Part shown: positions 3 to 24,549 of the stretch, in pieces | How the letters are laid out: each line of letters begins with the position of its first letter | How positions within the stretch are numbered: the stretch's first letter is position 1 | Origin: Candidatus Babeliales bacterium | GTDB taxonomy: Bacteria; Babelota; Babeliae; Babelales; JANWKD01 | DNA length: 64,000 nucleotides | Direction: 5' to 3' | Assembly (NCBI GenBank): GCA_963722075.1 | Contig: CAVRJM010000001.1 | Location: 981,898-1,045,897, forward strand | The notes under the pieces: generated by a model | What the model saw: only the letters and a program-made list of their open reading frames with translations | The model's database searches: none | What the model was told of the DNA's origin: nothing | Translations under genes and position numbers: made by a program

Positions 3-785
3 CCTGGTGTAGCTTTTAGCCCTGATGGAAAATTTTTAGCCGCCTGTTCTGAAAATATTCTTAAAATATGGGATACAAATACTTTTGACTGTATTTATAC
101 TCTTGATGAGCATACTGCGCAAATTAATCGTTTTGCATTTAGTCCACAGGGCCATTTTGTTGCTACCTGTTCTGACGATACCACTATTAAACTGTGGGAT
201 GTTGATACCGGTAGATGTGTACGAACTTTTAATGATACCGATAAAGTTACCTGTTTAACCTTTAGCCCCGATGAGAAAATACTTGTCACCGCCTCTTCTG
301 ATCATTATCGTAAACTCTGGGATGTACATACTGGCAAATGCTTAAAAGCAACTTACGGTCCTCAATTTTGCGTTCTTGCCTTTAGTCCACATGGCCTATT
401 TCTTGCAGGTTCATCCAAGGATAGTGTTAGTTTATGGGATACGAGTACTAATTACTCATTAATTCATAATGATAGCCATAGAGAAGTAGATGCCCTCCGG
501 TTTAGCCCTAATGGTCAATTTCTTGCTACTGCATCTTTTGGTGAGGTCTTTTTACGAAGAATGGTTGATACGGCAAAAATAGAAGAATATAAATATTTAC
601 CACCAGAACAATTGTTGTTACTTGCCTTTTGCTATAATGCGTTTGCAAACAAAATTACTTTTGATTTCTCTTGGCACCCCTATTTAAACGAGGTATATAA
701 TAACTGTTCTTCTGCAGTACGTGATCTGATTACCCAAAAGTTAATGCCAACTGGTTACCAACCAAGCTCATGCTTACTTAGTTAA
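3..785 (+). CDS. WD40-repeat protein, C-terminal part (5' end outside window)
   Basis: Frame 3 is open from the window edge to the stop at 783-785. It has repeated ~40-aa units of the type FSPDGKFLA...(I/L)K(I/L)WD (AFSPDGKFLAACS..LKIWD, AFSPQGHFVATCSDDTTIKLWD, FSPDEKILVTASSDHYRKLWD, FSPHGLFLAGSSKDSVSLWD, FSPNGQFLATAS). The track ORF 561..785 is only its tail. Confidence 0.85.
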   Translation, partial: PGVAFSPDGKFLAACSENILKIWDTNTFDCIYTLDEHTAQINRFAFSPQGHFVATCSDDTTIKLWDVDTGRCVRTFNDTDKVTCLTFSPDEKILVTASSDHYRKLWDVHTGKCLKATYGPQFCVLAFSPHGLFLAGSSKDSVSLWDTSTNYSLIHNDSHREVDALRFSPNGQFLATASFGEVFLRRMVDTAKIEEYKYLPPEQLLLLAFCYNAFANKITFDFSWHPYLNEVYNNCSSAVRDLITQKLMPTGYQPSSCLLS

Positions 786-810
786 AACACTGTCCAAATT
801 ATTTCTAATT

Positions 811-850
811 GAAAAAATAGCTAGTTAAAATTATAATTAGCTATTTTTTC
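811..850 (+). terminator. Hairpin terminator after the WD40 gene
   Basis: Perfect 13-bp stem gaaaaaatagcta / tagctattttttc with a 14-nt loop. The T-run lies in and after the 3' arm. Confidence 0.55.
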
Positions 851-906
851 AAAAAAATAGTATTATTAATTAAAATAATGATCCAGTCAATAAATGGGGG
901 ATTTAT

Positions 907-2469
907 ATGACCATGGTACGTTGGTTAAAATTAATCACTATTCTTATCAGTATAACTGCTGCATTTTTCTTTATTAACAAAAACGCTCATATACTTATTC
1001 ATACAGGATATGAATTATACTTCAAATTAATGCATCCTATCCCAAAAAAATCCCTTTGCCCTTATCAAGCTACCAATAAACGATTTGGCTTTAACTCGGT
1101 AACCTCTGCTACTCCTTTACAAGAATTAAAACACACCGGATCATTACCAAGCTGGCTCAAAGGAACCTTCTTAGCAACAGTACCCGCTCAATTTGAATTA
1201 GGAAATACTAAAGCCGCTTATTCCTTTAGTGGCCTTGCTATGCTACAAGGGTTTTATTTTGATGGCAATGGTATTAAATTTCAAAACTCATTCTTAGATA
1301 GTATTTATTACCGCCGTTGCACAAAAAACGGCAAATTTGATAGCAACATGACCAATCAAAAAAAAAGCTTTTTTTCACGGTTAGCAAACAGTTTTAGCAC
1401 TCCCGATCCTTATGACAATGGCAACATTGCTATAGGATATATGAATGGTAATGCAATCGCCTTAACAGAAACAACATTGGGTGTTATTGTTGATTCCAAC
1501 ACCTTACATACAAGAGCATCATTTGATCTTAATGAGCAGCTGGAAGGGCATCTTACCACTGCTCAATTTCAGTATGATCCTGAAACTAAATCGTGGTATA
1601 ATTATATGACAAACTTTGCACAACAAAGCACTTATCAGATTTATAAAATTACCGCTGATAACAAAACAGTATTAATTAGTTCCATACCGGTTAAAACGCC
1701 ATCATACATGCGCAGCTTTGCCATGAGCAAAGATTATATCGTGTTGATTGAGATTCCTTTTGTAGTTAATCCCATGGATTTATTATTTAATGGAGGGCCA
1801 TTTTTAACTGCATTACAATGGAAACCTGAGCTGGGAACTCGTTTTATTGTAATTAATAAACATACGGGTGAGCAACACCAACCATTGGTTACCACTCAAC
1901 CATTTTTCACGATTAATATTATCAATACCACTCAAGAAAATAATACCCTTACCATAGATGCTATTACCTATGAAAATGCTGACTTAATAAACCATATCAG
2001 TATGGAAGCATTGCAGAGTAATGATCCGCATGAATTTGAACCAGGATATACTACCCGTTTCACACTCAATCTAGAAAATAAAGAAGCATCACATCAGCGC
2101 ATTCCTTCTGCAGCCATTGAATTCCCTACTATAAATGCACAATACAACATGAAGCCATATACATTCTTATACGGACTTACTGCTGATCACCCACACCAAT
2201 TTCCTGCACAGCTTATTAAAATAAACATAAGCAATGGAACTTCAACTAAATGGCAACAAGAACAGTGCTTTGCCAGCCAGCCGGTGTTTGTACCAAATCC
2301 TACCGGAACTAATGAAGATGACGGTGTTATTCTTTCTGTTGTTTTTGATAGTATTGCACATCAATCATTTTTACTGCTATTGGATGCGCATAATTTTACG
2401 GAGCTTGCACGCGCACCGCTGCCATGCGCTATTCCATTGGGACTTTCAGGTACGTTTATTAAAGAATAA
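907..2469 (+). CDS. Carotenoid cleavage oxygenase / RPE65-family homologue with N-terminal hydrophobic anchor; predicted catalytically inactive
   Basis: Family blocks present: LPSWLKGTF, FDGNG, SFAMSKDYIVLIEIPF, EFPTIN, QPVFVPNP..EDDGVILSVVFD, LLLLDAHNF. The four Fe-ligand His positions read Q (TAQFQYDP), R (YMRSFA), I/N/T (FFTINIIN) and S (GLSGTF). SD-like GGGGGA lies upstream of the ATG. Confidence 0.8.
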   Translation: MTMVRWLKLITILISITAAFFFINKNAHILIHTGYELYFKLMHPIPKKSLCPYQATNKRFGFNSVTSATPLQELKHTGSLPSWLKGTFLATVPAQFELGNTKAAYSFSGLAMLQGFYFDGNGIKFQNSFLDSIYYRRCTKNGKFDSNMTNQKKSFFSRLANSFSTPDPYDNGNIAIGYMNGNAIALTETTLGVIVDSNTLHTRASFDLNEQLEGHLTTAQFQYDPETKSWYNYMTNFAQQSTYQIYKITADNKTVLISSIPVKTPSYMRSFAMSKDYIVLIEIPFVVNPMDLLFNGGPFLTALQWKPELGTRFIVINKHTGEQHQPLVTTQPFFTINIINTTQENNTLTIDAITYENADLINHISMEALQSNDPHEFEPGYTTRFTLNLENKEASHQRIPSAAIEFPTINAQYNMKPYTFLYGLTADHPHQFPAQLIKINISNGTSTKWQQEQCFASQPVFVPNPTGTNEDDGVILSVVFDSIAHQSFLLLLDAHNFTELARAPLPCAIPLGLSGTFIKE

Positions 2470-2713: not shown

Positions 2714-4012
2714 ATGCAGATAAACAATAAATCGGCTATGCCGATTCAGCAAGTATATTGGTATATCAATAAGCCATTAAATCCGCCACTTAAAGAAAAT
2801 ATCACCGTTGATGTTCTTATTATTGGCGGTGGCATGGCCGGATTAAGTGCCGCCCAAGCATTTCATGAAAAAGGGTTGCGCGTTGCGCTCATAGAAAAAA
2901 ATTTTTGTGGCGCTGGAGCAAGCGGCAAAAGTTCAGGATTTATTACTCCCGATTCAGAATTTGCACTCCATAATTTAATTGATTTTTATGGAAATGAGGT
3001 TGGCAAACGCCTTTGGGAATTTTCTTCTAACGGCGTAGCACTCATAGAAAAGAATATACACCAACATAAGATTTCATGTGATTATCAAAAACAAAATACG
3101 CTGGTTATTGCTTCAAGCCATCATGCTTTTAACTCATCAATTAAAGCAGAATATCAGGCACGCAAACAATTTAATTACGCTGCAACTCTTTATGAAAAAG
3201 ATCGGGTGCCTTCAATTCTAGGATCATCAAGCTATTATGGCGCTATTGAATATCCTGACACGTTTGGCATACATGCATACGCCTATTGCCAAGAAATGAA
3301 AACGATTTTAACAAATGCGGGTGTTTTACTATACGAAGATACGCCGCTTACGAGCTTTACTACAAACGGTGCGCAAACGCCACATGCCACGATTACTGCT
3401 GATAAAGTAATTGTTTGTATTGATCGCTTTATTAATGATTATGCAAAATTGCTTTCTCAAGTATACCATGTACAAACGTTTTTAATGATGAGTGAACCCG
3501 TATCAGATCAGGTAATTAATGCGTTATTTCCAGCACGCAAATTTATGGTATGGGATACCAATCTTATTTATAATTATTTTCGCTGCACCGGGGATAATCG
3601 ATTAATGCTGGGGGGCGCACGGCTTTTATCAACGTATGCTCCACGTGAACATTATCATAATAAAAAAATAATTAAAAAATTATCTTCTTATTTCAAAAAA
3701 AGCTTCCCGCAAGTTGATATTCAATTTAATTATATATGGCCAGGCCTTATTGGGATAACCAAAGATATTATGCCTATTGCCGGACCGGATAAACAACATC
3801 CTCACATTTATTATATTAGCGGGGCCGCCGGGCTACCATGGGCTGCAGCCTTGGGCGTCTATAGTGCACAGCATATACTAGAAAACCGTACTGATTTAGA
3901 TGTCGTGTTTTCTCCTGAACGCCATTTTGCACTCGGCAGTTGCGCACAAAAATTATTAGGAACACCGCTTACATTTGCTTTATGTAATTTTATGCGCACC
4001 AGATCACTATAA
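2714..4012 (+). CDS. FAD-dependent oxidoreductase (DAO family)
   Basis: N-terminal Rossmann dinucleotide motif VLIIGGGMAGLSAAQAFHEKGLRVALIEK. Its length (432 aa) and C-terminal GAAGLPWAA block are typical of DAO-type flavoproteins. Confidence 0.75.
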   Translation: MQINNKSAMPIQQVYWYINKPLNPPLKENITVDVLIIGGGMAGLSAAQAFHEKGLRVALIEKNFCGAGASGKSSGFITPDSEFALHNLIDFYGNEVGKRLWEFSSNGVALIEKNIHQHKISCDYQKQNTLVIASSHHAFNSSIKAEYQARKQFNYAATLYEKDRVPSILGSSSYYGAIEYPDTFGIHAYAYCQEMKTILTNAGVLLYEDTPLTSFTTNGAQTPHATITADKVIVCIDRFINDYAKLLSQVYHVQTFLMMSEPVSDQVINALFPARKFMVWDTNLIYNYFRCTGDNRLMLGGARLLSTYAPREHYHNKKIIKKLSSYFKKSFPQVDIQFNYIWPGLIGITKDIMPIAGPDKQHPHIYYISGAAGLPWAAALGVYSAQHILENRTDLDVVFSPERHFALGSCAQKLLGTPLTFALCNFMRTRSL

Positions 4013-4017
4013 AAATT

Positions 4018-4830
4018 TTAATTTGGAAAATCGCGAATAACATCTACATCAACCGCTCCACCACCAATTTGTAATGCACGTGCTTTTACCCTTCTACGGT
4101 CCCACATCCGTGCATGGTAAATAATAAAATCAAGGATAGTTTTTCCTATTGCCGGCTTACCACCCGCATAGGTAGTCCGTTGTAATTCCTTCATCAACGG
4201 ATAATTAACTATCGCGTTACGTAGCTGTTCATTCTCATCTGAGAAAGATTTTGGTATGAGAGAATAAGAAGTTTTGGGTTGTGGTATAGCACGTAATTTA
4301 TCTCCTGCCCCATGAATACGTTTGGCTGCTCTATAAATTTTTTTAAGAAATTTACGTATAGGCTGTGTTGTACTAAGAGGAGCATCTGAAGTATTATAAG
4401 CAGCCATAGCTTTAATAGTATTGTATAATGGTGGTATATGGTCATCTATTATTTCTAATATTTCAAGTATTCTTATTAATATTCTCGTAATTATCCGTTG
4501 GTCGCTGGCTTCACCCTTGACATAATCTGGTAAATAATCGGAATTAAGAATTAATCTGGTCACCGCGTCTTCAATTAAAGCAAATTCTGCGCAACCTTTA
4601 TGAAATAAATCATTTAATGCTTCAGGGGTTACTTGTTTATCACATATTTTCAATGATATGATAGGTTTTTCTGGTTGTACTGATACCGGAATCGTGGGAG
4701 GAATGCCTGGCGTTAAATAATTATGTAACGTAGTAAGACGATTTTTTAAATCACCTAATTCTGTTTCTAAGGAACAATGTGCAATTTGAAAACCGACCAA
4801 AACAATTACTGAAGCAATATATTTATTCAT
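4018..4830 (-). CDS. Secreted protein of unknown function (carries LxxLKxxLxxLxxxLxP motif)
   Basis: 270-aa ORF with an N-terminal signal peptide (MNKYIASVIVLVGFQIAHC). Its ATG directly abuts the stop of the upstream BI-1 gene (TAAATG junction). Confidence 0.65.
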   Translation of the reverse strand: MNKYIASVIVLVGFQIAHCSLETELGDLKNRLTTLHNYLTPGIPPTIPVSVQPEKPIISLKICDKQVTPEALNDLFHKGCAEFALIEDAVTRLILNSDYLPDYVKGEASDQRIITRILIRILEILEIIDDHIPPLYNTIKAMAAYNTSDAPLSTTQPIRKFLKKIYRAAKRIHGAGDKLRAIPQPKTSYSLIPKSFSDENEQLRNAIVNYPLMKELQRTTYAGGKPAIGKTILDFIIYHARMWDRRRVKARALQIGGGAVDVDVIRDFPN

Positions 4831-5529
4831 TTATTCATTACCTCTTCTGCCAAAAAGTCTAAGCAACATTAAGAACAAGTTAATAAAATCAAGATACAAG
4901 GTAAGGGCACCTAAAACCGCCACTTTATTTTCCATTTCACCTTGATCAATTAAAAATTCACTCATTTTCTTTATTTTTTGAACGTCATATGCCGTTAACA
5001 ACGTAAAGATGACAATTCCTACTAAAGTGATTATGTAATCAAAGGTTCCATTTCTCAAGAAAATATTAACAACCATACCAATAATCAATCCAAAGAGTGC
5101 CATAATTAAATATTTACCAACATTGGTTAAATCTGTTTTGGTAAAATAGCCATATAAGGCCATGCACAGAAACATTCCTGCCGTTACAAAAAAGGCGGTA
5201 TAAATAGTGCCAATATGGTAAACTAAAAAGATTGTTGAAAAGGTGACACCCATTAAAATGGCATAAAGAATTAATAATAATATTGCCGTAGCAAAATTTA
5301 ATTTTAAAATTGCTGCTGATAATACAACAACAATCACCAATTGAAGAATAAAAAGAAAAAAGAGCAACCAGGGGCTGGTTACCAATTTTTGCACCAGTGC
5401 TGGTTGACTAACTACATAAAAAGCAGTTGCAGCAGTAATCAGCAACGCACCAGCCATAAAGGCATACACTTTATATAATAAATTTTTAGCTACGGAATTA
5501 ACCGTACGAGAGTTATCAGAATTAACCAT
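4831..5529 (-). CDS. BAX inhibitor-1 / YccA family membrane protein
   Basis: About 7 predicted TM helices in 232 aa. C-terminal LGALTLYLDFINLFLMLLRLFG matches the family signature (LYLDxINxFL). Confidence 0.8.
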   Translation of the reverse strand: MVNSDNSRTVNSVAKNLLYKVYAFMAGALLITAATAFYVVSQPALVQKLVTSPWLLFFLFILQLVIVVVLSAAILKLNFATAILLLILYAILMGVTFSTIFLVYHIGTIYTAFFVTAGMFLCMALYGYFTKTDLTNVGKYLIMALFGLIIGMVVNIFLRNGTFDYIITLVGIVIFTLLTAYDVQKIKKMSEFLIDQGEMENKVAVLGALTLYLDFINLFLMLLRLFGRRGNE

Positions 5530-11038: not shown

Positions 11039-11938
11039 TTATTCAGTTTTCAAATATAAATCAAGTTCATCGATAAAATCATGCAATAGATTATGCAAAT
11101 TTCTGTATTGAGCAACCGTCGGCTTTGAAAAACAGAGCGAAGCATTCAGGTCCCATAATAAGCGTTGTACCCAATAGCCACGCCAAATATCACATACCCT
11201 AAACGATGTTGTTATTGGTAATACTAAACCCCAAAAAGCATGGTAATAAAAAATAGTATTCTGTGAATTAAAAGGGCTCATAGTATACGCAGCTAAACAA
11301 ATTGGATCATGATCTTCGAATATGACTTCCTCTTGCCGCGTTAATCTAAAAATTGCATCCACATCAGGATCTATATTAGCCAAAGCTTGCTGGATGGGGA
11401 TATGCGCAGATTGCATGGCTACTGAATAATTGAAAGGTGCGGTGATTTTACTTAATGGGTAACCACGTGGCCACACGTTCGCTTGCCCAAAAAGTGCATA
11501 CGGATTAATAGCCGTTTCTACAGAAGAATATTGTAAAAGAGTAACGTGCTCAGGATAGCAATTTATATGCTCATCAATAAGCAAATTATCATCATCTGTT
11601 TCATAAATTATTTTGGCACCATGCTCTATAGCATATAAATAGCCTATATTTTTTCTACAATAATGATTCCATGGTAACAATGGAATAATTTTATATGGAA
11701 GCTGTTCTTGAACTTCTACGCTCAGAAAATCGCAATTATCTAAATGCCAATTTGAGGGCGTCTTTTTATCGGCAACCACCACCAAGCGCCATTCTCTCAA
11801 ACGTGCAAGCTTTTTTAATGTTGCAGTGGGATAATTGATAGTGGTTACTACAATCCACTTATCATGAGCTTGCACGCCTCCATAATAAAAAAAAATAACT
11901 ACAATAAGAAAATGCTCATTTGCCCAATACTTCATCAC
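11039..11938 (-). CDS. STELLO/DUF288-like glycosyltransferase-like protein (ends at an in-frame TAA; see findings)
   Basis: WIVVTTINYPT...WRLVVVADKKTP..W, RKNIGYLYAIEHGAKIIYETDDDN and WPRGYP are the blocks I associate with the eukaryotic STELLO/DUF288 family. N-terminal signal anchor. Confidence 0.6.
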   Translation of the reverse strand: MMKYWANEHFLIVVIFFYYGGVQAHDKWIVVTTINYPTATLKKLARLREWRLVVVADKKTPSNWHLDNCDFLSVEVQEQLPYKIIPLLPWNHYCRKNIGYLYAIEHGAKIIYETDDDNLLIDEHINCYPEHVTLLQYSSVETAINPYALFGQANVWPRGYPLSKITAPFNYSVAMQSAHIPIQQALANIDPDVDAIFRLTRQEEVIFEDHDPICLAAYTMSPFNSQNTIFYYHAFWGLVLPITTSFRVCDIWRGYWVQRLLWDLNASLCFSKPTVAQYRNLHNLLHDFIDELDLYLKTE

Positions 11939-12119: not shown

Positions 12120-13121
12120 ATGAAAGAAAAGATTTCTATTGTAATACCTGTTTATAATGAAGAAAATAATTTAATTCCTATGTATTCCATTATTAATGAG
12201 ATTGTTCAAAAAGTTGCTGATTATTTTAGTTATGAACTGATTTTAGTTAACGACGGCAGCAAGGATAATTCTTGGTCTATTATTAAAAAATTAGCCGCTG
12301 CAGATCCAGCAATTAAAGCAATTAATTTTAGTAGAAACTTTGGGCATCAAATTGCACTCACTGCTGGCTATGATATAGCAACCGGTGATGCTATTATCAC
12401 TATGGATGCAGATTTACAAGATCCACCTCATCTTATATTGGAGATGATTGAATCATGGAAAAAAGGAAATTTAATTGTATATGCACGGCGAGCCAACCGA
12501 AGCGATACTTTTTTAAAAAAATATACCGCACTCCTTTATTATAAATTTTTAGATTATATAGCTGACGTTAAAATACCACGTAACGTAGGTGATTTTCGCT
12601 TAATTGATAAAAAGGTGTTACAAACGCTAAAAGAATGTCCAGAAAAATCACGCTACTTGCGCGGCATGGTTGCTTGGACTGGCTTTAAACATGATTTTAT
12701 AGATTTCAATAGATCAAATAGACATGCAGGAACTACTGGATATACATGGAATAAAATGTTTAAGCTTGCATTTGATGGGCTTACGGCATTTTCATTATTT
12801 CCACTTAAAATTGCAGCCTTTGTTGGATTATTTGTTATGGTAACAGGAAGCCTTATGTTTAGTTATATCACCATTGATGCACTTATTTTTGGCATCGATT
12901 ACCCACTTTTCAAATGGCTCGTTACTATAATTTATATTTTTATGGGCTTACAATTTATTCTTTTATGGTTAGTAGGTGAATATATTGGTAGAATTCATGA
13001 GCAACAAAAAAATAGACCTTTATATTTAGTTGATGAATTAGTAAATTTTGAAAAAGCAATTTCGATATCAGATTCCATCATTGCTGCAAATGACCCCAAA
13101 GTAAAAGATCTTCATTATTGA
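12120..13121 (+). CDS. GT2 polyprenyl-phosphate glycosyltransferase (GtrB/ArnC-like), copy a
   Basis: ISIVIPVYNEENNL, LVNDGSKDNSW, FSRNFGHQIALTAGY and TMDADLQDPP, plus two C-terminal TM helices. Confidence 0.85.
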   Translation: MKEKISIVIPVYNEENNLIPMYSIINEIVQKVADYFSYELILVNDGSKDNSWSIIKKLAAADPAIKAINFSRNFGHQIALTAGYDIATGDAIITMDADLQDPPHLILEMIESWKKGNLIVYARRANRSDTFLKKYTALLYYKFLDYIADVKIPRNVGDFRLIDKKVLQTLKECPEKSRYLRGMVAWTGFKHDFIDFNRSNRHAGTTGYTWNKMFKLAFDGLTAFSLFPLKIAAFVGLFVMVTGSLMFSYITIDALIFGIDYPLFKWLVTIIYIFMGLQFILLWLVGEYIGRIHEQQKNRPLYLVDELVNFEKAISISDSIIAANDPKVKDLHY

Positions 13122-13209
13122 TTACGAGTTGAGTTTTTTATTGATTTTTTTAGAGTAATTAAAAATATTATTTCAAAAGAAAGAATTATACAATTCAAAG
13201 GAAATTATA

Positions 13210-13899
13210 ATGAAAGCAGAATTCGATTCATATATAAAAGATTACCGCAAAGATCTTGATAATCACCTTGCATTATCGGGAGAAAATAGTAGTTTTTTTG
13301 CTGAGTATAAAGCATTAAAACTCAAGGAATGGCTGGGTAAGCAAGCGTTAACTGCACAAAAAATATTAGATTTTGGTTGCGGTGACGGGCTAATGACTAA
13401 CTTTGTGAGCGTTCACCTTCCCAACGCTCAACTCTATGGCGTTGATCCTTCCCCAGATAGCATTAAAGCTGCGCAAAAAAATTATCCCCATTTACGCCTA
13501 AGTGTCAGCTATGATGAACGGTATGATTTAGATTTTCCCACCGCTTATTTTGATATTATATTTGCTGCAGGAGCGTTTCATCATATTCAATTTAAGCATC
13601 ATAACGGCTTTTATAAAGAACTATTTAGAATCTTAAAACCTAATGGCGTATTAGTTACTTTTGAGCTTAACCCACTTAATCCTCTTACTTATAGAACCTT
13701 TAAAAAAAATCCTATTGATCAACATGCCACCATGCTCAAACCATGGTATGCATATCAATTAGGTAAAGAATGGGCTCGTAAACGTTCATTAAAATTTTAC
13801 TGTTTTTACCCTCATGCACTTCGATGGTTGCGTTTTTCAGAAAAATATTTAACCAAAATACCAGCAGGTGCATTATATGCTACTATTTTCACCAAATAA
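13210..13899 (+). CDS. Class I SAM-dependent methyltransferase
   Basis: Motif I ILDFGCGDGLM, post-I YGVDPS, and motif III LKPNGVLV. Confidence 0.8.
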   Translation: MKAEFDSYIKDYRKDLDNHLALSGENSSFFAEYKALKLKEWLGKQALTAQKILDFGCGDGLMTNFVSVHLPNAQLYGVDPSPDSIKAAQKNYPHLRLSVSYDERYDLDFPTAYFDIIFAAGAFHHIQFKHHNGFYKELFRILKPNGVLVTFELNPLNPLTYRTFKKNPIDQHATMLKPWYAYQLGKEWARKRSLKFYCFYPHALRWLRFSEKYLTKIPAGALYATIFTK

Positions 13900-13932
13900 A
13901 GATCGTTATTTTGCACATAAAGGGAGCAATTA

Positions 13933-15117
13933 ATGAATATCATGCTGTGCCGGCTTAATAATCTTCAACATGCGCTTGCAGGCCTTATTAAAACAGGCGT
14001 TCCGCTTATTTTTTATGATGGTCAAAAACTAGTTCCTTTTGATGCAAGTGATGATATAGGCATATATTATTTCATTCCCCGGCTTGCTTGCTTTTTTAAT
14101 ATATCCCTTGAACAGAGTATCGCGTTTTTCTTTAATACCATGCTAGCGTGTTCATTTATAGCAGCCTTTGTGGGATTTTGGTGTTTATATCGTACTCTTT
14201 TTTCAAGAATTTTCATCACCGCTGAGCTATCGCTCCTTCTTTTTTTTATTATTCGGACTAAAACTTATGATGTATACCTAACCTATATCATGGCAAATTT
14301 ATGTTTGATCCCATTATTTTTATATCTGTTTTTTAAAAAAAATAATTCAGCTATATTTGATATCTTTTTAATAATCGGCGGTGTAATAATAGGATCTTTA
14401 CATTATATAAGAGCTTTTTCAGCCCTGGGTGCCGGTGCATTTATCGTCTGTATGATCATATTAAATCACCAATTTTCTGGCAAAAAAAAGTCATTTTTAT
14501 TAAGTTGCTTACTAGGTGGATTACTTCTTTCAGTTTGTTATTTTCAAAACATTATATATTCATATCAAAGCGCTGCTAAAAAAATATTTACCAACTACTC
14601 GGACTTTCCTATACACCATCCTTTTTGGCATTCTATTTATATAGGCTTTGGTTTTTTAAAATTTTTAAATGACGATAATATTGAATATGCTGATCAATGT
14701 GGCACTAATAAAGTGCAACAGCCTATAACTGCACATAATTTCAATGAATATGAAAATTATTTAAAAAATGAAGTCGCTCTTCTATGGAAAAAGAAGAAGG
14801 TATTTTTTTTATTTACTATTTTTGCAAAAATAGGCGTCTTAATTTTGTTTTTCCTTTTTTTTACAAATATAGGCATAATTCATCTATTTTTTACCAAATC
14901 ATGGGCCATTGAATGTTCTTTTATAGCATCATTTATATGCAATAGCTTACCTTGTCTTTTAGCAGTACCTTGTTTTGCTTATGGCGTTGGATTCATTACC
15001 CTGAGCACGATATATTGTATTGTGAGTATTTGCACTATATCAAGGCAAGAGCTCGTAGGAAAATTATTTACGTTAAAAAAAATAATGGGTCGAAACATTT
15101 TCTTTAACAATGCATAA
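13933..15117 (+). CDS. Polytopic membrane protein, candidate GT-C-like glycosyltransferase, copy a
   Basis: About 11 hydrophobic segments. Paralogous to 16035..17261 (shared FDASDDIGIYYFIPRL / SFDDVGIFILIPKL and HHPFWHSIYIGFGFLKFLNDDNIEYADQCG / KHPFWHTVYAGLGLLRWKNDDNIEFDDGCV). Its end overlaps the start of the next GT2 gene by 8 nt. Confidence 0.6.
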   Translation: MNIMLCRLNNLQHALAGLIKTGVPLIFYDGQKLVPFDASDDIGIYYFIPRLACFFNISLEQSIAFFFNTMLACSFIAAFVGFWCLYRTLFSRIFITAELSLLLFFIIRTKTYDVYLTYIMANLCLIPLFLYLFFKKNNSAIFDIFLIIGGVIIGSLHYIRAFSALGAGAFIVCMIILNHQFSGKKKSFLLSCLLGGLLLSVCYFQNIIYSYQSAAKKIFTNYSDFPIHHPFWHSIYIGFGFLKFLNDDNIEYADQCGTNKVQQPITAHNFNEYENYLKNEVALLWKKKKVFFLFTIFAKIGVLILFFLFFTNIGIIHLFFTKSWAIECSFIASFICNSLPCLLAVPCFAYGVGFITLSTIYCIVSICTISRQELVGKLFTLKKIMGRNIFFNNA

Positions 15118-16045
15118 AAAATTAATTTCAATCATATTACCTGTTTATAATGAGCAGCATAATATTCCATTGGTATATAAAGAAATTATCAAGCATGTAA
15201 AAGATACCACTTATAACTTTGAAATTATTTTTATTAATGATGGTAGTAAGGATAAGTCATGGGAAACCATTAAACAACGTGCCTCATCTGATTCTCAAGT
15301 AAAGGGGGTTAATTTTATAAGAAATTTTGGTCATCAAGCTGCTTTAATGGCTGGGTATCATTATGCTTCTGGAGAGGCTATTATTTCAATGGATACCGAT
15401 CTACAACATCCTCCTGAAATGATTCCTTCCATGATTATTGCTTGGCAGCAAGGTTTTGACATTGTATATATTCAGAATGTAAAACGTAATGATAATTTTT
15501 TGAAAAAAATCACAGCTGCGTGTTATTACAAATTCCTTGAAAAATCAGCCCATATAAAAACACCACGCAATGTAGCCGATTTTAGATTGATTGATAAAAA
15601 AGTGAGAGATATTGTTATTACCTTACCCGAGAAAGCATTATACCTGCGCGGTCTAATAGCATGGGTAGGTTTCTCATATACTATTATTCCTTGTATATTT
15701 GCTAAACGGCATGCTGGTCAACCAGGATATACTTGGCATAAAATGATCAAACTCGCCCTGGATGGTATTTTTGGATTTTGCACTTCTCCTTTTAAAATGT
15801 TGTACTTTATTTCTTTATTTATTATAAATAGCGGGTTAACGTGTCTCATATATCATATAGTATATCCATACCCTATGATGCACTATTCCTCTTTAACAGT
15901 AATTATAACCGTAACGTATATGCTATTGGGGATACAGTTTTTTCTCATTGGGCTATTATATCATCACTTAAGTATTTTTTATCAAGCAATAAAAAAACGT
16001 CCTACCTATATTATTACTGATTTACACAGCCATTTTAAGAATTAA
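15110..16045 (+). CDS. GT2 polyprenyl-phosphate glycosyltransferase (GtrB/ArnC-like), copy b
   Basis: ISIILPVYNEQHNI, FINDGSKDKSW, IRNFGHQAALMAGY, SMDTDLQHPP and C-terminal TM helices. Paralogue of 12120..13121. Confidence 0.85.
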   Translation: MHKKLISIILPVYNEQHNIPLVYKEIIKHVKDTTYNFEIIFINDGSKDKSWETIKQRASSDSQVKGVNFIRNFGHQAALMAGYHYASGEAIISMDTDLQHPPEMIPSMIIAWQQGFDIVYIQNVKRNDNFLKKITAACYYKFLEKSAHIKTPRNVADFRLIDKKVRDIVITLPEKALYLRGLIAWVGFSYTIIPCIFAKRHAGQPGYTWHKMIKLALDGIFGFCTSPFKMLYFISLFIINSGLTCLIYHIVYPYPMMHYSSLTVIITVTYMLLGIQFFLIGLLYHHLSIFYQAIKKRPTYIITDLHSHFKN

Positions 16046-19591: not shown

Positions 19592-22306
19592 TTAGAATTT
19601 CCAACGCATTTCTACTTCACCACCATAATCACCCCGTTCATCACGCATACCGCGCAGAGTGATGTCATCAGATAAGAAATACTCAACTTCTAATTTAATA
19701 TCTTCAGATAAGCTAAAATTTTTCTGTATCATGCCACGCAACTGATCGTTAACATCAATTTCGATGGTCCCTCGAAAACCACCACGTCCTGATTGATCAG
19801 AAAAACCTGGTATAAAACGGATATGCTTAAACTGTTCTAATAACCCTTTAAAATACCCTTCCAATTTAGTCGCTGATTGCTCCGGACCAAAAATGATATT
19901 TTGCAACTTTTGCATAATCATTGCTGGCATCGCCAGACTTAATGATCCTTCTTCAGTTCCCGCCAGTAATAGGGTAATAATCTGTTCTTCAGTTAAGGGT
20001 GGCGTTGATTCAAAACTAATATGCGGTTGCTGTAACGATCCTTCACAACGCAATGTTATTTGATATTTTCTAATCTTGCCTTTTGCAATAAGCTCAACTA
20101 AAGGATCGTATAATTGATGCGGTAAAAAATGAATACCACAATGCGTAATAGAAAGCGGCCGATAGGGAAATGCTAATGTTCCTTTTTCTAAATATAAACT
20201 TCCCGTGCATTCTGGGTGTTGTAATCTTCCTTGTATAGCAACCGATCCTTGCACTGACGTATCTAAAAAGGATGTTTTCACTTCAATAGGATTTTTCGTT
20301 TCAATGAATAAATTTAACCAACATTGTTCCTTTAAATCAGTTCGAGAATCAGTTAAATCATTAGTAACTGGTTTACCAAATTGAGCAAAGATATTTTTTT
20401 TAAAATAACCACGATCGATAATTATATTACCCGTTAATTCATTTTTCTTATTTTCATCATATACATACACAATAGTGCCGGAAAAAACAGCAAACAACTC
20501 TTTTTGTAAGGTTAAAAACGCTTTTTTTATAAGACATGGTGCATAAATATAATAGGGAGTTCCATTATTGCGCAAAAGTATATGTGCTCGCGAACAATAT
20601 AATGATCCTTTATCAAGCTCTAAAAGACAATCGTTAAGTACAATTTTTTTAGCTTTAAAATCTGCATGCATTACCGCTTTCAAATTTCTAATCAAACTAT
20701 AGGTACCGGGTATGCGTATATTCCCTTCAATTAGTTCTAAAGAAGATTCTACTGATGATTCTTTATAGGTACCTTTTATATGTAAAATGCCTTGGCCCGG
20801 AACTTTATAATTAAAAAGATGATTGGTAATTTCTTGACCAATACTGAAATCAATAACCCCATTAAACCCTTCTTGATCGCTCATAATTTGTATCAGCGGC
20901 TGTTCTTTTTTTTCATGTACCGTAAAATCTGTTAATGCAAAATGTGGCTGTAAAGTAAAAGAGCCCTTATATTTTTTTTTATTAAATTCACCTTTAATAG
21001 AACAATCTTTAAAAGTTCCATCAATGGTCCCCTTTATACCATACGCAATTGATTTTGTTATCATATCTCGAGCATGCAATGTGTAGGATCCTGTATAGAT
21101 CCCATCCAACAAAGAAAGCTCAAACCATAATGCTTTTTTTTCAATAACTAATTCATTATGTATGGCAATATCAGCTACATTAGTAGCCTTAAGATAGCCA
21201 GTACTGGCTTTTTCATCATAGTAACCACCAATATGAGCATCTTTTACATCATCAAAAAAATGATCCGCATGCATCACCCATTTTTGTTTATTATAATCAA
21301 TAGCTATTTCTAAAGAGCCTAAAGGAATATTACACAAAGCGATATCGGTACATGTTAAGGATCCATTGAGCGTATCGGATAATTGTATGGTAAAATGACT
21401 TGTAATAGTCCCATTTAATACATCAGGTGCAACAAAAGGTATGAATGATGTTAAATAATGAGCTGGTATTGCTCCAATAACGGTACCATGCACGGCATGC
21501 GCTGTTTTAATCCAATTATAAAACATAAGATGCCACTGCTGATCAGAAGAATTAATAAAGAGCTGACCATTATTATTGCTCCAATGACCTTCAATAATAT
21601 ACTTTTGATCGTCAATGGGTAAATGCGGGAATAATAAGGTACTATACATATCGAGGCTAATTATATTATTTTTCCAATCGGGAATATCTAAATCAAAATG
21701 CCCCGAAAGAGCAGTACAATATTTCTTGCTATCATAAGTAACTTCACCTTCCATAAAATAAATTTGTAATTTTAACCATCCTTGTACATTGCTATAAGCA
21801 CCATTAAACAGGGTGCTATACGTCATGCTATTAGCACAATTATGTAAAAGAAAAGATCCATTATTAATGGTTAATGTTCTGAGTGTCGCAGGAAATCCTT
21901 CTGCACCAGCAATAAAATTTTGCAAATGCCCCACAATTGCTATTGATGAATGATCAAAGGTAGAATGGGAATCAAGATCATTTAAGGTAACTTCTATATC
22001 AAATTTATTTTGAAATAAAAATGAAAGCCATGAAAAATGTATCTTAAAATAAGGTGCACGCCATTGCCATTGCCCCTCAGGATCCGTAACACATACTTCC
22101 CTAAGCTCTATGGTACCGGTGAGAACATTCACCCGTGTTACCGTTCCTTCTAAATAACTTTTAAAAGACGTTAAAAAAATCTTCTTTATTTGCAACTCAA
22201 CAAAATGAATTACTTGGGGATCAAATTGAAGCAAGAGAAGCGCTATAATCACCGAAGCAAGAAATGATAAAAGCAGAGATCTAACGCATCTAAAGAACAC
22301 ATTCAT
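19592..22306 (-). CDS. tamB: TamB-like translocation and assembly module protein (DUF490 C-terminus)
   Basis: N-terminal TM anchor, long beta-rich body and a C-terminus typical of TamB (ISFESTPPLTEEQIITLLLAG ... GGEVEMRWKF). I placed the start at the ATG that forms an ATGA overlap with the upstream stop; the track start 22321 is also possible. Confidence 0.75.
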   Translation of the reverse strand: MNVFFRCVRSLLLSFLASVIIALLLLQFDPQVIHFVELQIKKIFLTSFKSYLEGTVTRVNVLTGTIELREVCVTDPEGQWQWRAPYFKIHFSWLSFLFQNKFDIEVTLNDLDSHSTFDHSSIAIVGHLQNFIAGAEGFPATLRTLTINNGSFLLHNCANSMTYSTLFNGAYSNVQGWLKLQIYFMEGEVTYDSKKYCTALSGHFDLDIPDWKNNIISLDMYSTLLFPHLPIDDQKYIIEGHWSNNNGQLFINSSDQQWHLMFYNWIKTAHAVHGTVIGAIPAHYLTSFIPFVAPDVLNGTITSHFTIQLSDTLNGSLTCTDIALCNIPLGSLEIAIDYNKQKWVMHADHFFDDVKDAHIGGYYDEKASTGYLKATNVADIAIHNELVIEKKALWFELSLLDGIYTGSYTLHARDMITKSIAYGIKGTIDGTFKDCSIKGEFNKKKYKGSFTLQPHFALTDFTVHEKKEQPLIQIMSDQEGFNGVIDFSIGQEITNHLFNYKVPGQGILHIKGTYKESSVESSLELIEGNIRIPGTYSLIRNLKAVMHADFKAKKIVLNDCLLELDKGSLYCSRAHILLRNNGTPYYIYAPCLIKKAFLTLQKELFAVFSGTIVYVYDENKKNELTGNIIIDRGYFKKNIFAQFGKPVTNDLTDSRTDLKEQCWLNLFIETKNPIEVKTSFLDTSVQGSVAIQGRLQHPECTGSLYLEKGTLAFPYRPLSITHCGIHFLPHQLYDPLVELIAKGKIRKYQITLRCEGSLQQPHISFESTPPLTEEQIITLLLAGTEEGSLSLAMPAMIMQKLQNIIFGPEQSATKLEGYFKGLLEQFKHIRFIPGFSDQSGRGGFRGTIEIDVNDQLRGMIQKNFSLSEDIKLEVEYFLSDDITLRGMRDERGDYGGEVEMRWKF

Positions 22307-22806
22307 GGCATAAGAACCCAACGGTTCTGATACTCATATTTTCTTATATAAGGCAGTTGCGCACTTGGTATTGTTATTGCATACGCATATTGTTTAGTTG
22401 CGTCAATCAAATATATCGTTCCAGAGCTCATTGATCCATCAGGGAAAAATTGTATTTTATCGTGCACAAAGGTGATCGCTTGATTAATCTTGTGCAACGG
22501 TTGTGAGGGGGGGCCATAACATTCAGGTAAAAAACCAAATCGTATATTATTAGATAATGAATACGTACTTGAATCCACGGTATAACTTTGGCGAGCTTGA
22601 TTAAATGTCAGCTTCTGTTCCTTATGAGTTGCTAATGCATATTGACGCAAATAGTAACAAACCATAGCCAATTTTTCTACTTCTGATTTAAGTACCGTGT
22701 TATTTAAAAATGAAAGACTTGGTAACGCTAATCCTATAATAACCATGATAAGCGTAATAACTATGAGAAATTCCATGAGAAAAAACCCCTGCTTAGCAGT
22801 TATCAC
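22303..22806 (-). CDS. Prepilin-type N-terminal cleavage/methylation domain protein (minor pilin / GspH-FimT-like)
   Basis: The leader MITAKQG followed by FFLMEFLIVITLIMVIIGLALP fits the G/F-x-x-x-E prepilin peptidase motif with Glu at +5. GTG start 12 nt after the ATPase stop. Confidence 0.75.
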   Translation of the reverse strand: MITAKQGFFLMEFLIVITLIMVIIGLALPSLSFLNNTVLKSEVEKLAMVCYYLRQYALATHKEQKLTFNQARQSYTVDSSTYSLSNNIRFGFLPECYGPPSQPLHKINQAITFVHDKIQFFPDGSMSSGTIYLIDATKQYAYAITIPSAQLPYIRKYEYQNRWVLMP

Positions 22807-22818
22807 TTTTTTTCCCTT

Positions 22819-24549
22819 TTATTCTGGTTGATCCTCTTCGCTGGTGGCTACGCGCAACACTTCTTCCGGCGTTGTTAATCCTTCAGCAATTTTGGCAATA
22901 CCATCCTGAATTAAAAGTGTCATACCGTCAGCAATCGCCTGGCGTCTAATTACCGATGCATCAGCCTTTTCTATAGTAAGCTTAGCCACTTCACTGCTCA
23001 TTTCCATTACTTCAAATATAGCAAGCCGCCCCTTATAGCCATTAACACATTCCTCACACGCCACTGGTTTATAAAAAGTAATTTTAGCTGCTTTTTCTTT
23101 ACTTAATCCAAGCAAACGTAATACTTCATCATCAGGAGTGTATGGTTGTTTTGATTTTGGGCATAAGCGACGTACTAAACGTTGCGCCAATACACTCACC
23201 ACTGAAGAAGCAATTAAGAATGGTTCAATTCCCATATCGATTAATCGGGTAATACTGGCAGGCGCATTATTAGTATGTATCGTTGTTAGTACTAAGTGCC
23301 CCGTAAGTGCCGCTTGGATAGCAATTTGCGCTGTTTCTTGATCGCGCGTTTCACCAATCATAATAATATCTGGATCTTGCCGTAAAATAGAACGTAAAGC
23401 AGCAGCAAAAGTTAAACCAATTTTAGCATTCACTTGCACTTGACCAATACCCGCCATTTGATATTCAACAGGATCTTCCACCGTAACCACGTTAACTTCA
23501 GGTTTATTTAAGCGGCTTAAAATTGAATATAACGTCGATGTTTTACCAGACCCAGTAGGACCTGAGACCAATATAATACCGTTAGCACGCGCTGTGCTTT
23601 TAGTGATCACCTCAAAATCACGTTTACTAAATCCAAGTTGTTCAAGAGCCCCAAATGTTTTTGATTTATCAAGAAGTCGCATTACAATTCGTTCACCAAA
23701 AGTGACCGGCAATACCGAAACACGAATATCGATTGCTTTATCGGCAACTTTAATTTGAATTCTCCCATCTTGCGGCAATCGCTTTTCAGCAATATTAAGA
23801 TTTGCCATAATTTTTATTCGCGAAGATAATGCTGCTTGCACCCGTTTAGGAGGCGTAAATGCTGGATACATAATACCATCAATTCGATAACGAACACGCA
23901 CTTCTTTTTCATACGGTTCAATATGAATATCTGAAGCGCCGCGCTTAACTGCCTGCACAAAGATATGATTTACTAATTTGATTATGGGCGCTTCACCAGC
24001 CATAGTAAGGATATCTTTTTCTTCGATCTCCTCAAATTCCATAGCCTCAGGCATTCCCTTTTCTTCTTCAAGCTCCTCAATCATCTGCTTGGTACCCTCA
24101 AGCGGATAATAGCGATTGATTCCTTCTATAATAACCTCTTTGGTTGCAACAGCCCGCTGCACATCACCGCCCAACAGCATCGTCAGCTCGTCAAGCGGTT
24201 GAAAGAGCGTAGGATTTGAAGTAATTAAGGTTACTGCACCGTTATACATAACCGGCATAATACTATTTTGCCGTAAAAATTTAAGCGGAATTCTACCAAG
24301 TAAGGCCGGATCAGCCATTTTTTCAGTAATTTTTTCTATAAAGGGAAGTCCTGTTTGCTCTGCATAGGCACGGGCAATATCCTCATTGGTTACAAACTGA
24401 TGCTCTACTAAACAATCCGCCATTGATTGCCCCGTAGTGCTTATTTTGGCGGAGCACTCTTTTATTTGATCCTGACTTATAATACCCCGATCAAGTAAAA
24501 TCGTTATTATATCTTTTTTAATTACCATATTTGATCTTTCAACCGACAA
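22819..24549 (-). CDS. Type II secretion / type IV pilus assembly ATPase (GspE/PilB family)
   Basis: N-terminal T2SSE_N-like domain, Walker A GPTGSGKTST, Asp and His boxes (IMIGETRD, TGHLVLTTIHTN) and a tetracysteine motif (CPKS...CEEC). Confidence 0.9.
   Translation of the reverse strand: MSVERSNMVIKKDIITILLDRGIISQDQIKECSAKISTTGQSMADCLVEHQFVTNEDIARAYAEQTGLPFIEKITEKMADPALLGRIPLKFLRQNSIMPVMYNGAVTLITSNPTLFQPLDELTMLLGGDVQRAVATKEVIIEGINRYYPLEGTKQMIEELEEEKGMPEAMEFEEIEEKDILTMAGEAPIIKLVNHIFVQAVKRGASDIHIEPYEKEVRVRYRIDGIMYPAFTPPKRVQAALSSRIKIMANLNIAEKRLPQDGRIQIKVADKAIDIRVSVLPVTFGERIVMRLLDKSKTFGALEQLGFSKRDFEVITKSTARANGIILVSGPTGSGKTSTLYSILSRLNKPEVNVVTVEDPVEYQMAGIGQVQVNAKIGLTFAAALRSILRQDPDIIMIGETRDQETAQIAIQAALTGHLVLTTIHTNNAPASITRLIDMGIEPFLIASSVVSVLAQRLVRRLCPKSKQPYTPDDEVLRLLGLSKEKAAKITFYKPVACEECVNGYKGRLAIFEVMEMSSEVAKLTIEKADASVIRRQAIADGMTLLIQDGIAKIAEGLTTPEEVLRVATSEEDQPE

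Follow-up and report, generated by a model that had tools for sequence, protein, structure and literature searches.

What does a protein of the carotenoid cleavage dioxygenase (CCD) fold do once the histidines that hold its catalytic iron are gone? The question is raised by a gene at positions 907-2469 on the plus strand of a 64,000 nt stretch of DNA from a Candidatus Babeliales bacterium (contig CAVRJM010000001.1), the whole of which is referred to here as the window. In CCDs, O2 is activated by a five-coordinate Fe(II) whose protein ligands are four histidines; these have been called absolutely conserved and said to define the superfamily (PMC12051055, PMC5643517, PMC8866865). Three of these ligands are hydrogen-bonded to second-sphere carboxylates, a feature as defined in PMC12051055, and a further 'FDG' motif has been called highly conserved (PMC5643517). 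The window protein has the fold and none of the four histidines. It is very probably a selectively maintained CCD-fold protein that is not an oxygenase.

The gene and its principal domain are as follows.
907-2469, plus strand, stop codon included: coding sequence of a 520-residue His-less protein of the CCD/RPE65 fold, identified by Pfam, PDB, AlphaFold2 (AF2) and Foldseek matches.
1090-2460, plus strand: seven-bladed beta-propeller domain, residues 62-518, homologous to CCDs by profile, PDB, AF2 and Foldseek.

The Pfam profile PF03055 (RPE65) matches at 316 bits against a cut-off of 27 (E 6.1e-94), and the match covers residues 64-518, corresponding to profile positions 3-468 of 469. By phmmer against the PDB, the closest solved relative is NdCCD (6VCF), an apocarotenoid-cleaving dioxygenase from the archaeon Nitrosotalea devaniterra, which aligns in a single stretch over residues 53-518 at 36% identity (E 2.4e-100). 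An AF2 model built from 53 homologues has a mean predicted local distance difference test score (pLDDT) of 92.6 and a predicted template modelling score of 0.86, with pLDDT values of 93-96 in the four motif blocks. Foldseek places this model on 6VCF at a template modelling (TM) score of 0.95 (target-normalised) and a root-mean-square deviation of 2.3 Å; further matches are NinaB, C. elegans BCMO, RPE65 and ACO, with TM scores of 0.8-0.88 for NinaB, RPE65 and ACO. On profile and model evidence the protein belongs to the CCD/RPE65 superfamily by descent and by predicted fold, and this assignment is secure. The full-length CCD/RPE65 fold proposed in a first-pass annotation of this DNA is thereby borne out.

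The phmmer alignment pairs the four ligand blocks of the window protein with those of NdCCD as TTAQFQYD with TTAHPHYD, PSYMRSFAM with PAYMHSFAM, FFTINIIN with FFAFHHVN, and PLGLSGTF with PFGFHGNY. Because His172 of NdCCD is named as an iron ligand (PMC12051055), the register of the alignment is fixed. The positions at and around the former iron site, all assigned by alignment, are listed below.
1219-1230, plus strand: YSFS (Y105-S108), where HWFD of the HWFDG or 'FDG' motif is canonical; the clade consensus is YWFN.
1426-1428, plus strand: I174, the kept 'occluding' residue of the iron site (V126 in NdCCD), within the conserved DNGNI block.
1468-1470, plus strand: E188, the first second-sphere carboxylate, kept and clade-invariant, and the putative salt-bridge partner of R269.
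1564-1566, plus strand: Q220, at Fe-ligand His position 1 (H172 in NdCCD).
1711-1713, plus strand: R269, at Fe-ligand His position 2 and present in every core-clade member.
1915-1917, plus strand: N337, at Fe-ligand His position 3.
2119-2121, plus strand: E405, the second second-sphere carboxylate, kept; E or D in 16/18 core members.
2278-2280, plus strand: Q458, replacing the third second-sphere Glu.
2446-2448, plus strand: S514, at Fe-ligand His position 4, where residues vary across the clade (I, M, S, A, V, N, K).

These assignments were examined in a family alignment of 198 sequences, made up of 53 word-index matches plus the 150 top representatives found when 1.84 billion proteins were searched exhaustively with a profile. 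His occupies all four ligand columns in 160 of the 198 aligned relatives, so the register is not in doubt. A misregistered alignment is ruled out by the agreement of the phmmer alignment to 6VCF, the 53- and 198-sequence alignments and the Foldseek superposition. Thus, the earlier claim that all four iron-ligand histidines are replaced, which depended on the register at the four motifs, is confirmed: Q220, R269, N337 and S514 sit at the right positions, and no substitute His was found. The substitutions extend beyond the ligands themselves. The third second-sphere Glu is E in 159 of the 160 canonical relatives and Q458 here, the His of HWFDG is H in 142 and Y105 here, and the Asp of 'FDG' is D in 153 and S108 here.

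What is lost and what is kept form a coherent pattern. E188 and E405 persist beside R269 and N337, respectively. The third Glu (position 458), which partners His4 in canonical enzymes, and His4 itself have both been lost, and mostly a small or aliphatic residue stands in for His4. The aliphatic occluding residue is present as I174 although the iron site is gone. NdCCD, the closest solved structure (6VCF/6VCG/6VCH), shares with the window protein the seven-bladed propeller, the DNxN(V/I) occluding block, the TET(T/P) Glu block and the hydrophobic tunnel residues. It differs in having H172 and three more Fe(II)-binding His, all three second-sphere Glu and HWFDG, and in having no N-terminal anchor; the window protein instead combines Q/R/N/S in the ligand columns with Q in place of the third Glu, YSFSG and a signal-anchor. 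By sequence, the protein lies outside the functional class of CCDs as defined by the four-His site, the three second-sphere carboxylates and the FDG motif. As there is no four-His Fe(II) site, and an Arg stands at ligand position 2, the protein should neither activate O2 nor cleave alkenes, and we strongly infer that Fe(II)-dependent alkene cleavage is excluded.

The window protein is not alone. The tetrad is absent from relatives P0001-P0016 and P0019, and the exhaustive search adds the same pattern in P0054, P0055 and the fragment P0180; all of these are metagenome-assembly sequences. The pattern Q/N-R-N/S-x recurs in about 20 orthologues from Candidatus Babeliales (Dependentiae); this answers whether the tetrad is also missing from related genomes, as the first-pass annotation had asked. 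Position 1 is Q (N in two), position 2 is R and invariant in the core, position 3 is N (S in two), and position 4 varies. In a neighbour-joining tree on Kimura-corrected distances (64-sequence subset), these proteins, together with four more divergent ones, form a 22-member clade in which none has the full tetrad; the clade has a bootstrap value of 86/100 and is nested among proteins with four histidines (HHHH). His-less CCD loci numbered three in a one-genome-per-species collection and three in a metagenome scan, and the clade is therefore rare.

The four more divergent members of the clade have the ligand patterns QRHH (P0017), YRHR (P0056), QHTV (P0018) and RREA (P0058). The basal patterns QRHH, YRHR and QHTV suggest that the metal site was dismantled stepwise. 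In the order they suggest, H1 (to Q) and H2 (to R) changed early, along with H105 (to Y) and E458 (to K), and H3 and H4 disappeared later. The neighbour-joining sister group consists of canonical HHHH, anchor-bearing CCDs from Babeliales-like and Parachlamydiaceae bins (for example P0021, P0057, P0060, P0036 and P0040). They share with the window protein an N-terminal anchor followed by a variable linker, a similar length, and H215. Unlike it, they keep four His, three Glu and mostly HWFDG, are presumably active iron enzymes, and do not occupy the syntenic position beside a Bax1-I gene in the loci examined.

Ligand loss is also seen outside the Babeliales clade, where about a dozen of the 198 closest members have independently lost one to four ligands: HHNH (P0059, P0067, P0069), YHHY (P0090), VQNH (P0091), YHNG (P0092), NHSR (P0111), HNHG (P0130), HHIH (P0174), HQHH (P0175), QHHH (P0194) and HQHT (P0038). 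Metal-site loss may thus be recurrent in the anchor-bearing branch of the family, with alignment error possible case by case. One further relative, P0151 (ligand pattern QHNR), is 978 residues long, nearly twice the usual length, and has three profile-matching stretches; two propellers may be fused or arranged in tandem in it.

Several lines of evidence indicate that the His-less proteins are maintained. First, reading frames are intact in 8/8 genes examined, at identities down to 38%. Second, the ratio of nonsynonymous to synonymous substitution rates (dN/dS, Nei-Gojobori) is 0.11 between the window gene and its 75%-identical L004 orthologue, 0.12 between L007 and L003, and 0.31 between L001 and L002, with dS near saturation in these comparisons. 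Third, the blocks of ±3 residues around the former metal-site positions are more conserved in the core clade than the remainder of the propeller (mean entropy per column 1.01 versus 1.35; one-sided Mann-Whitney p=0.003), and among the best-conserved 9-mers anywhere in the protein are YSFSGLAML, PSYMRSFAM, EGHLTTAQF, DPYDNGNIA and ALTETTLGV. A dN/dS near 0.11, intact open reading frames (ORFs), the same substitutions in about 20 orthologues and conserved synteny together argue that the protein is kept by purifying selection and is not decaying. Loss of catalytic residues is thus combined with purifying selection in several lineages, as is the case for a pseudoenzyme. The earlier view of a protein repurposed rather than broken gains support from the low dN/dS, the shared substitutions and the synteny.

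The N-terminus carries a feature that is absent from NdCCD.
931-975, plus strand: hydrophobic signal-anchor, residues 9-23, LITILISITAAFFFI, preceded by a basic n-region (R5, K8) and followed by a variable linker to about residue 60, identified by hydropathy and AF2.

Residues 9-23 have a mean Kyte-Doolittle value of 2.66, and AF2 models one long helix over residues 2-42. In all full-length clade members except P0054, the N-terminus is basic and leads into a hydrophobic run (about 15-18 residues) with an aromatic-rich end, followed by a linker that varies in length and composition. No convincing signal-peptidase site was seen by eye, and the segment is for that reason read as an uncleaved signal-anchor. 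Ahead of the helix the sequence has basic but no acidic residues, whereas acidic residues are mixed in beyond it; this charge bias suggests an N-in, C-out orientation, and the propeller is most likely periplasmic. The same anchor is found on many canonical HHHH sisters, namely P0021, P0036, P0037, P0057, P0060-P0066 and others, and on the Parachlamydiaceae protein P0040 (MBA3603791.1). It therefore predates the loss of the histidines and is a feature of a wider CCD group from host-associated bacteria, and the possibility that it is a novelty of the His-less proteins is ruled out. Thus, the hydrophobic N-terminal segment noticed at first pass is real, on the evidence of hydropathy and the AF2 helix, but it is not peculiar to proteins without the tetrad. 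A binding or effector role was also put forward at that stage, and it stands as a conjecture; an envelope-tethered protein is favoured over a secreted host effector because the signal-anchor is uncleaved.

The substrate tunnel appears to have been retained along with the fold. The 19 tunnel-lining residues listed for C. elegans BCMO-1 (PMC8866865) were mapped via the phmmer alignments to the PDB, in which the chain index runs 20 ahead of the residue number. The mapping checks out at known landmarks: BCMO-1 W54/F55 fall on HWFDG, V129 matches the occluding residue, E143 matches E188 and H522 matches S514. Of the 19 tunnel positions, 16 are hydrophobic in at least two thirds of the core members, and their column entropy is 0.80 compared with 1.33 for the rest of the propeller (p=0.004). 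An amphipathic helix at the tunnel mouth, KKSFFSRLA at residues 152-160, is among the most conserved blocks.

Taken as a whole, the best explanation is that the protein is a membrane-tethered, iron-free pseudo-oxygenase with Arg269 in the metal site that binds a lipophilic ligand without cleaving it; we would give this full account a probability of roughly 0.5. In such a protein, the uncleaved N-terminal signal-anchor would tether the propeller to the cell membrane, with the propeller in the periplasm. The four-His Fe(II) centre has been dismantled and would be refilled with protein side chains. The guanidinium of Arg269 would lie where Fe(II) sat, on the geometric argument that an Arg can fill the metal position because its Cα-Cζ distance of about 6 Å approximates the Cα-Fe distance through a His ligand, and would leave the tunnel's end with a positive charge and a hub for hydrogen bonds. 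Arg269 is predicted to pair with Glu188 and to form hydrogen bonds to Gln220 and to Asn337/Glu405. A lipophilic molecule could then enter from the membrane via the retained tunnel and be held without turnover, for binding, sequestering or transfer, with R269, Q220 and N337 available for a polar or anionic head group. The ligand may be fatty-acid-like or apocarotenoid-like and possibly anchored by a carboxylate on Arg269, as palmitate is on the iron of RPE65. In RPE65 structures the palmitate carboxylate contacts the iron. RPE65-palmitate complexes are among the Foldseek PDB matches, and they are a precedent for placing a carboxylate there in the fold. The specific choice of ligand binding or transfer as the role, over new catalysis or protein scaffolding, is a tentative one.

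Several points weigh against this explanation. The conserved tunnel Trp, W106, is Ser in the window protein, and tunnel position 364 is Thr in 12/18 clade members. Were Q, R and N part of a new catalytic centre, they would be expected to be just as strongly conserved. The translational coupling of the CCD-like gene to a methyltransferase gene in six related loci hints at a metabolic, possibly catalytic, context. The choice between periplasmic and cytoplasmic topology is judged solely from the charge distribution around the anchor, and the genome is a metagenome assembly.

RPE65 itself resembles the proposed protein in several ways, having the same fold (Foldseek TM about 0.82), no alkene cleavage, membrane binding and a fatty-acid carboxylate at the propeller centre. 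It differs in keeping the four-His Fe(II) as a needed Lewis acid, in being monotopic rather than anchored by a transmembrane segment, and in its low identity (24%). The nearest functional analogy may lie in the carbonic-anhydrase-related proteins CARP VIII, X and XI. These form a conserved, selectively maintained acatalytic branch of binding proteins in which zinc-ligand His are replaced by Arg or Gln and an Arg fills the metal site. They are eukaryotic, with an unrelated fold and metal (Zn), and their known roles are in protein-protein interactions.

The first alternative is that a new catalytic site, free of metal, has formed on the CCD scaffold at the Gln-Arg-Asn(-Glu) centre. Such a site could support an isomerase, hydratase/lyase or ester-cleaving activity on a lipophilic substrate, with Arg269 electrophilic or oxyanion-stabilising, and in some lineages the protein would act in one pathway with an adjacent S-adenosylmethionine (SAM)-dependent N-methyltransferase. 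An enzyme would suit the invariance of R269 and the near-invariance of Q220 and N337, as well as the retained hydrophobic tunnel and the former active-site blocks, which no other part of the protein exceeds in conservation. Position 4 and the third Glu position vary, as expected of a filled-in rather than a tuned site. The fold does support non-oxygenase chemistry in RPE65, albeit with iron, and to our knowledge there is no precedent for metal-free catalysis in a CCD fold. The genomic evidence points both ways. In six loci the His-less CCD gene is followed by a gene for a class-I SAM methyltransferase of about 250 residues, which begins either in overlap with the CCD stop codon or at most 25 nt away.
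L001, 9422-10180: methyltransferase gene.
L013, 3030-3788: methyltransferase gene.
L014, 1998-2747: methyltransferase gene.
L015, 2987-3754: methyltransferase gene.
L017, 1728-2483: methyltransferase gene.
L018, 1548-2300: methyltransferase gene.

The nearest solved relatives of this methyltransferase are the small-molecule/peptide N-methyltransferases CcbJ, TylM1/DesVI-type enzymes and CypM. The gene is missing in half of the lineages, however; no orthologue was found in the 64-kb window or at the P0002, P0012, P0017 and P0018 loci. In addition, if the propeller is periplasmic it shares no compartment with a SAM-dependent enzyme. The coupling of the two genes is suggestive, not universal, and the methyltransferase is unsupported as an obligatory partner for the window gene. 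A new catalytic site is thus unlikely, and the more specific proposal that the Gln-Arg-Asn cluster is a metal-free enzyme acting on a host-derived lipophilic substrate, with the coupled N-methyltransferase in several lineages, is a little less likely still.

About as improbable as a new catalytic site in general is a scaffold or regulatory pseudoenzyme, in which the propeller would be an envelope protein-protein module or a regulator of an active CCD paralogue and the tunnel would be irrelevant. Beta-propellers are often interaction platforms, and many pseudoenzymes regulate active paralogues. Anchor-bearing canonical HHHH relatives occur in similar organisms, and the metal site would be filled merely for stability. 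Conservation is not even, though, and is instead focused on interior positions of the former active site and the tunnel, and no canonical paralogue is present in the 64-kb window or the fetched loci, whole genomes lying outside the scope of that comparison.

An oxygenase that still uses iron or another metal, through ligands recruited from elsewhere in the sequence, is very improbable. E188 and E405 are kept near the site, and H215 is the sole clade-invariant His. H215 is also present in the canonical sisters and in C. elegans BCMO-1, and for that reason it is not a compensating ligand; the clade alignment contains no other conserved His and no clade-specific Cys/Asp/Glu cluster, and no cation could sit at a site whose ligand position 2 is an Arg. 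A hidden replacement His or a new Cys/Asp/Glu metal cluster is thereby ruled out. Least credible of all is a decaying relic or pseudogene of a once-active dioxygenase, to which the missing catalytic residues, the variable positions 514 and 458 and the reductive genome evolution of the host lineage might point, and which is ruled out by intact ORFs in all loci, by dN/dS values of 0.11-0.31 (dS saturated) and by the fixation of the same replacement residues in divergent orthologues, alongside a good ribosome-binding site and a very high-confidence fold prediction.

With purifying selection, four replaced His and an invariant Arg at one ligand position, this clade would be the first described iron-free branch of the carotenoid-oxygenase fold that was found. 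Full-text literature, from which most subscription-journal papers are outside coverage, yielded nothing relevant on His-less or pseudoenzyme CCDs or on CCDs in Dependentiae/Babeliales. Pseudoenzymes are common in general, which tempers the surprise; an iron-free, conserved, anchored clade with intermediates would nevertheless be unexpected for the CCD superfamily. The clade would be a natural experiment on a propeller and hydrophobic tunnel without the metal, its intermediates QRHH, YRHR and QHTV would document the order in which the metal centre was dismantled, and it is experimentally tractable. It also points to an uncharacterised, possibly lipid-handling envelope protein in Dependentiae, whose host-interaction biology is almost unknown. 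A practical consequence concerns annotation. Orthologues are automatically named 'beta,beta-carotene 9',10'-dioxygenase' by the Joint Genome Institute (JGI); this name is almost certainly wrong, and a carotenoid-dioxygenase annotation is unsuited to them.

The window is an ordinary chromosomal region of a Dependentiae-type intracellular bacterium. It has about 35% G+C and encodes SecA, GroEL, HisRS, a type II secretion system/type IV pilus (T2SS/T4P) ATPase, TamB, glycosyltransferases, and ankyrin and WD40 proteins, and all three related loci of the one-genome-per-species collection are from metagenome-assembled genomes labelled 'Candidatus Babeliales bacterium'. A protein identical to that of the window is encoded on a 1.42-Mb NCBI contig. 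Dependentiae are obligate intracellular parasites of protists. The eukaryote-associated lifestyle proposed earlier is thus supported by the Babeliales relatives and by the ankyrin and WD40 genes. Upstream of the CCD-like gene and immediately downstream of it are the following features.
809-837, plus strand: promoter-like TTGAAA-17-TATAAT, 11/12 match, intergenic and 5' of the coding sequence; a candidate only.
896-901, plus strand: Shine-Dalgarno-like GGGGGA, 5 nt 5' of the ATG.
2714-4012, plus strand: DAO-family FAD oxidoreductase, on the same strand as and 3' of the CCD-like gene, by profile match and locus comparison.
4831-5529, minus strand: Bax1-I family membrane protein, the conserved synteny anchor, by profile match and locus comparison.

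Promoter-like sites overall are no more numerous in the region than in shuffled sequence. The gene order in the window and in L004 is WD40, CCD-like, DAO, Bax1-I, a hypothetical protein of 230 residues, thioredoxin and DJ-1. The P0017 and P0018 loci have CCD-like, Bax1-I, hypothetical and thioredoxin, and the P0010 locus has CCD-like, methyltransferase, DUF1295, Fic, Bax1-I, hypothetical, thioredoxin and DJ-1. From this shared order, the CCD-like genes are positional orthologues kept over deep divergence, down to 38% identity.

The DAO gene lies near the CCD-like gene in most fully His-less loci, and no terminator-like site was found between the two genes in the window. It is missing beside the P0017, P0018 and L003 genes. 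Its product has more than 1000 close homologues, mostly in Babeliales bins, compared with about 20 His-less CCDs. It reaches no NCBIfam equivalog cut-off, has no solved PDB relative beyond the FAD-binding motif, and is automatically named gamma-glutamylputrescine oxidase by JGI. It is evidently a widespread, uncharacterised core Babeliales enzyme, and because of this its adjacency reflects synteny and is a weak functional link. As a functional partner of the CCD-like protein it has been downgraded on these grounds.

Other features of the neighbourhood differ between loci. Directly 5' of the CCD-like gene, window positions 3-785 (plus strand, frame 3, running off the window start) encode the C-terminal part of a WD40-repeat protein, and the L004 counterpart in this place is a WD40 beta-propeller protein of 606 residues. 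Between the DAO and Bax1-I genes, positions 4018-4830 (minus strand) hold a 270-residue ORF with a hydrophobic N-terminus and no Pfam or NCBIfam match; as it has no counterpart in the collinear L004/L005 or in other fetched loci, it looks like a lineage-specific insertion. In L002, two ankyrin-repeat genes separate the CCD-like gene from an intact DAO gene, and a 41-residue fragment at 11056-11178, with 51% identity to the DAO N-terminus, lies 5' of them and may be a remnant of an ankyrin-gene rearrangement or insertion.

Across the whole 64 kb, no tRNA genes and no Rfam families above the gathering threshold were found. Farther along the window, positions 12120-16045 (plus strand) carry two family-2 glycosyltransferases, a class-I methyltransferase and an unassigned 394-residue ORF, a cluster that is probably for envelope glycan synthesis. 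A TamB-like gene (19592-22321, minus strand) and the T2SS/T4P ATPase gene (22819-24549, minus strand) lie near this cluster.

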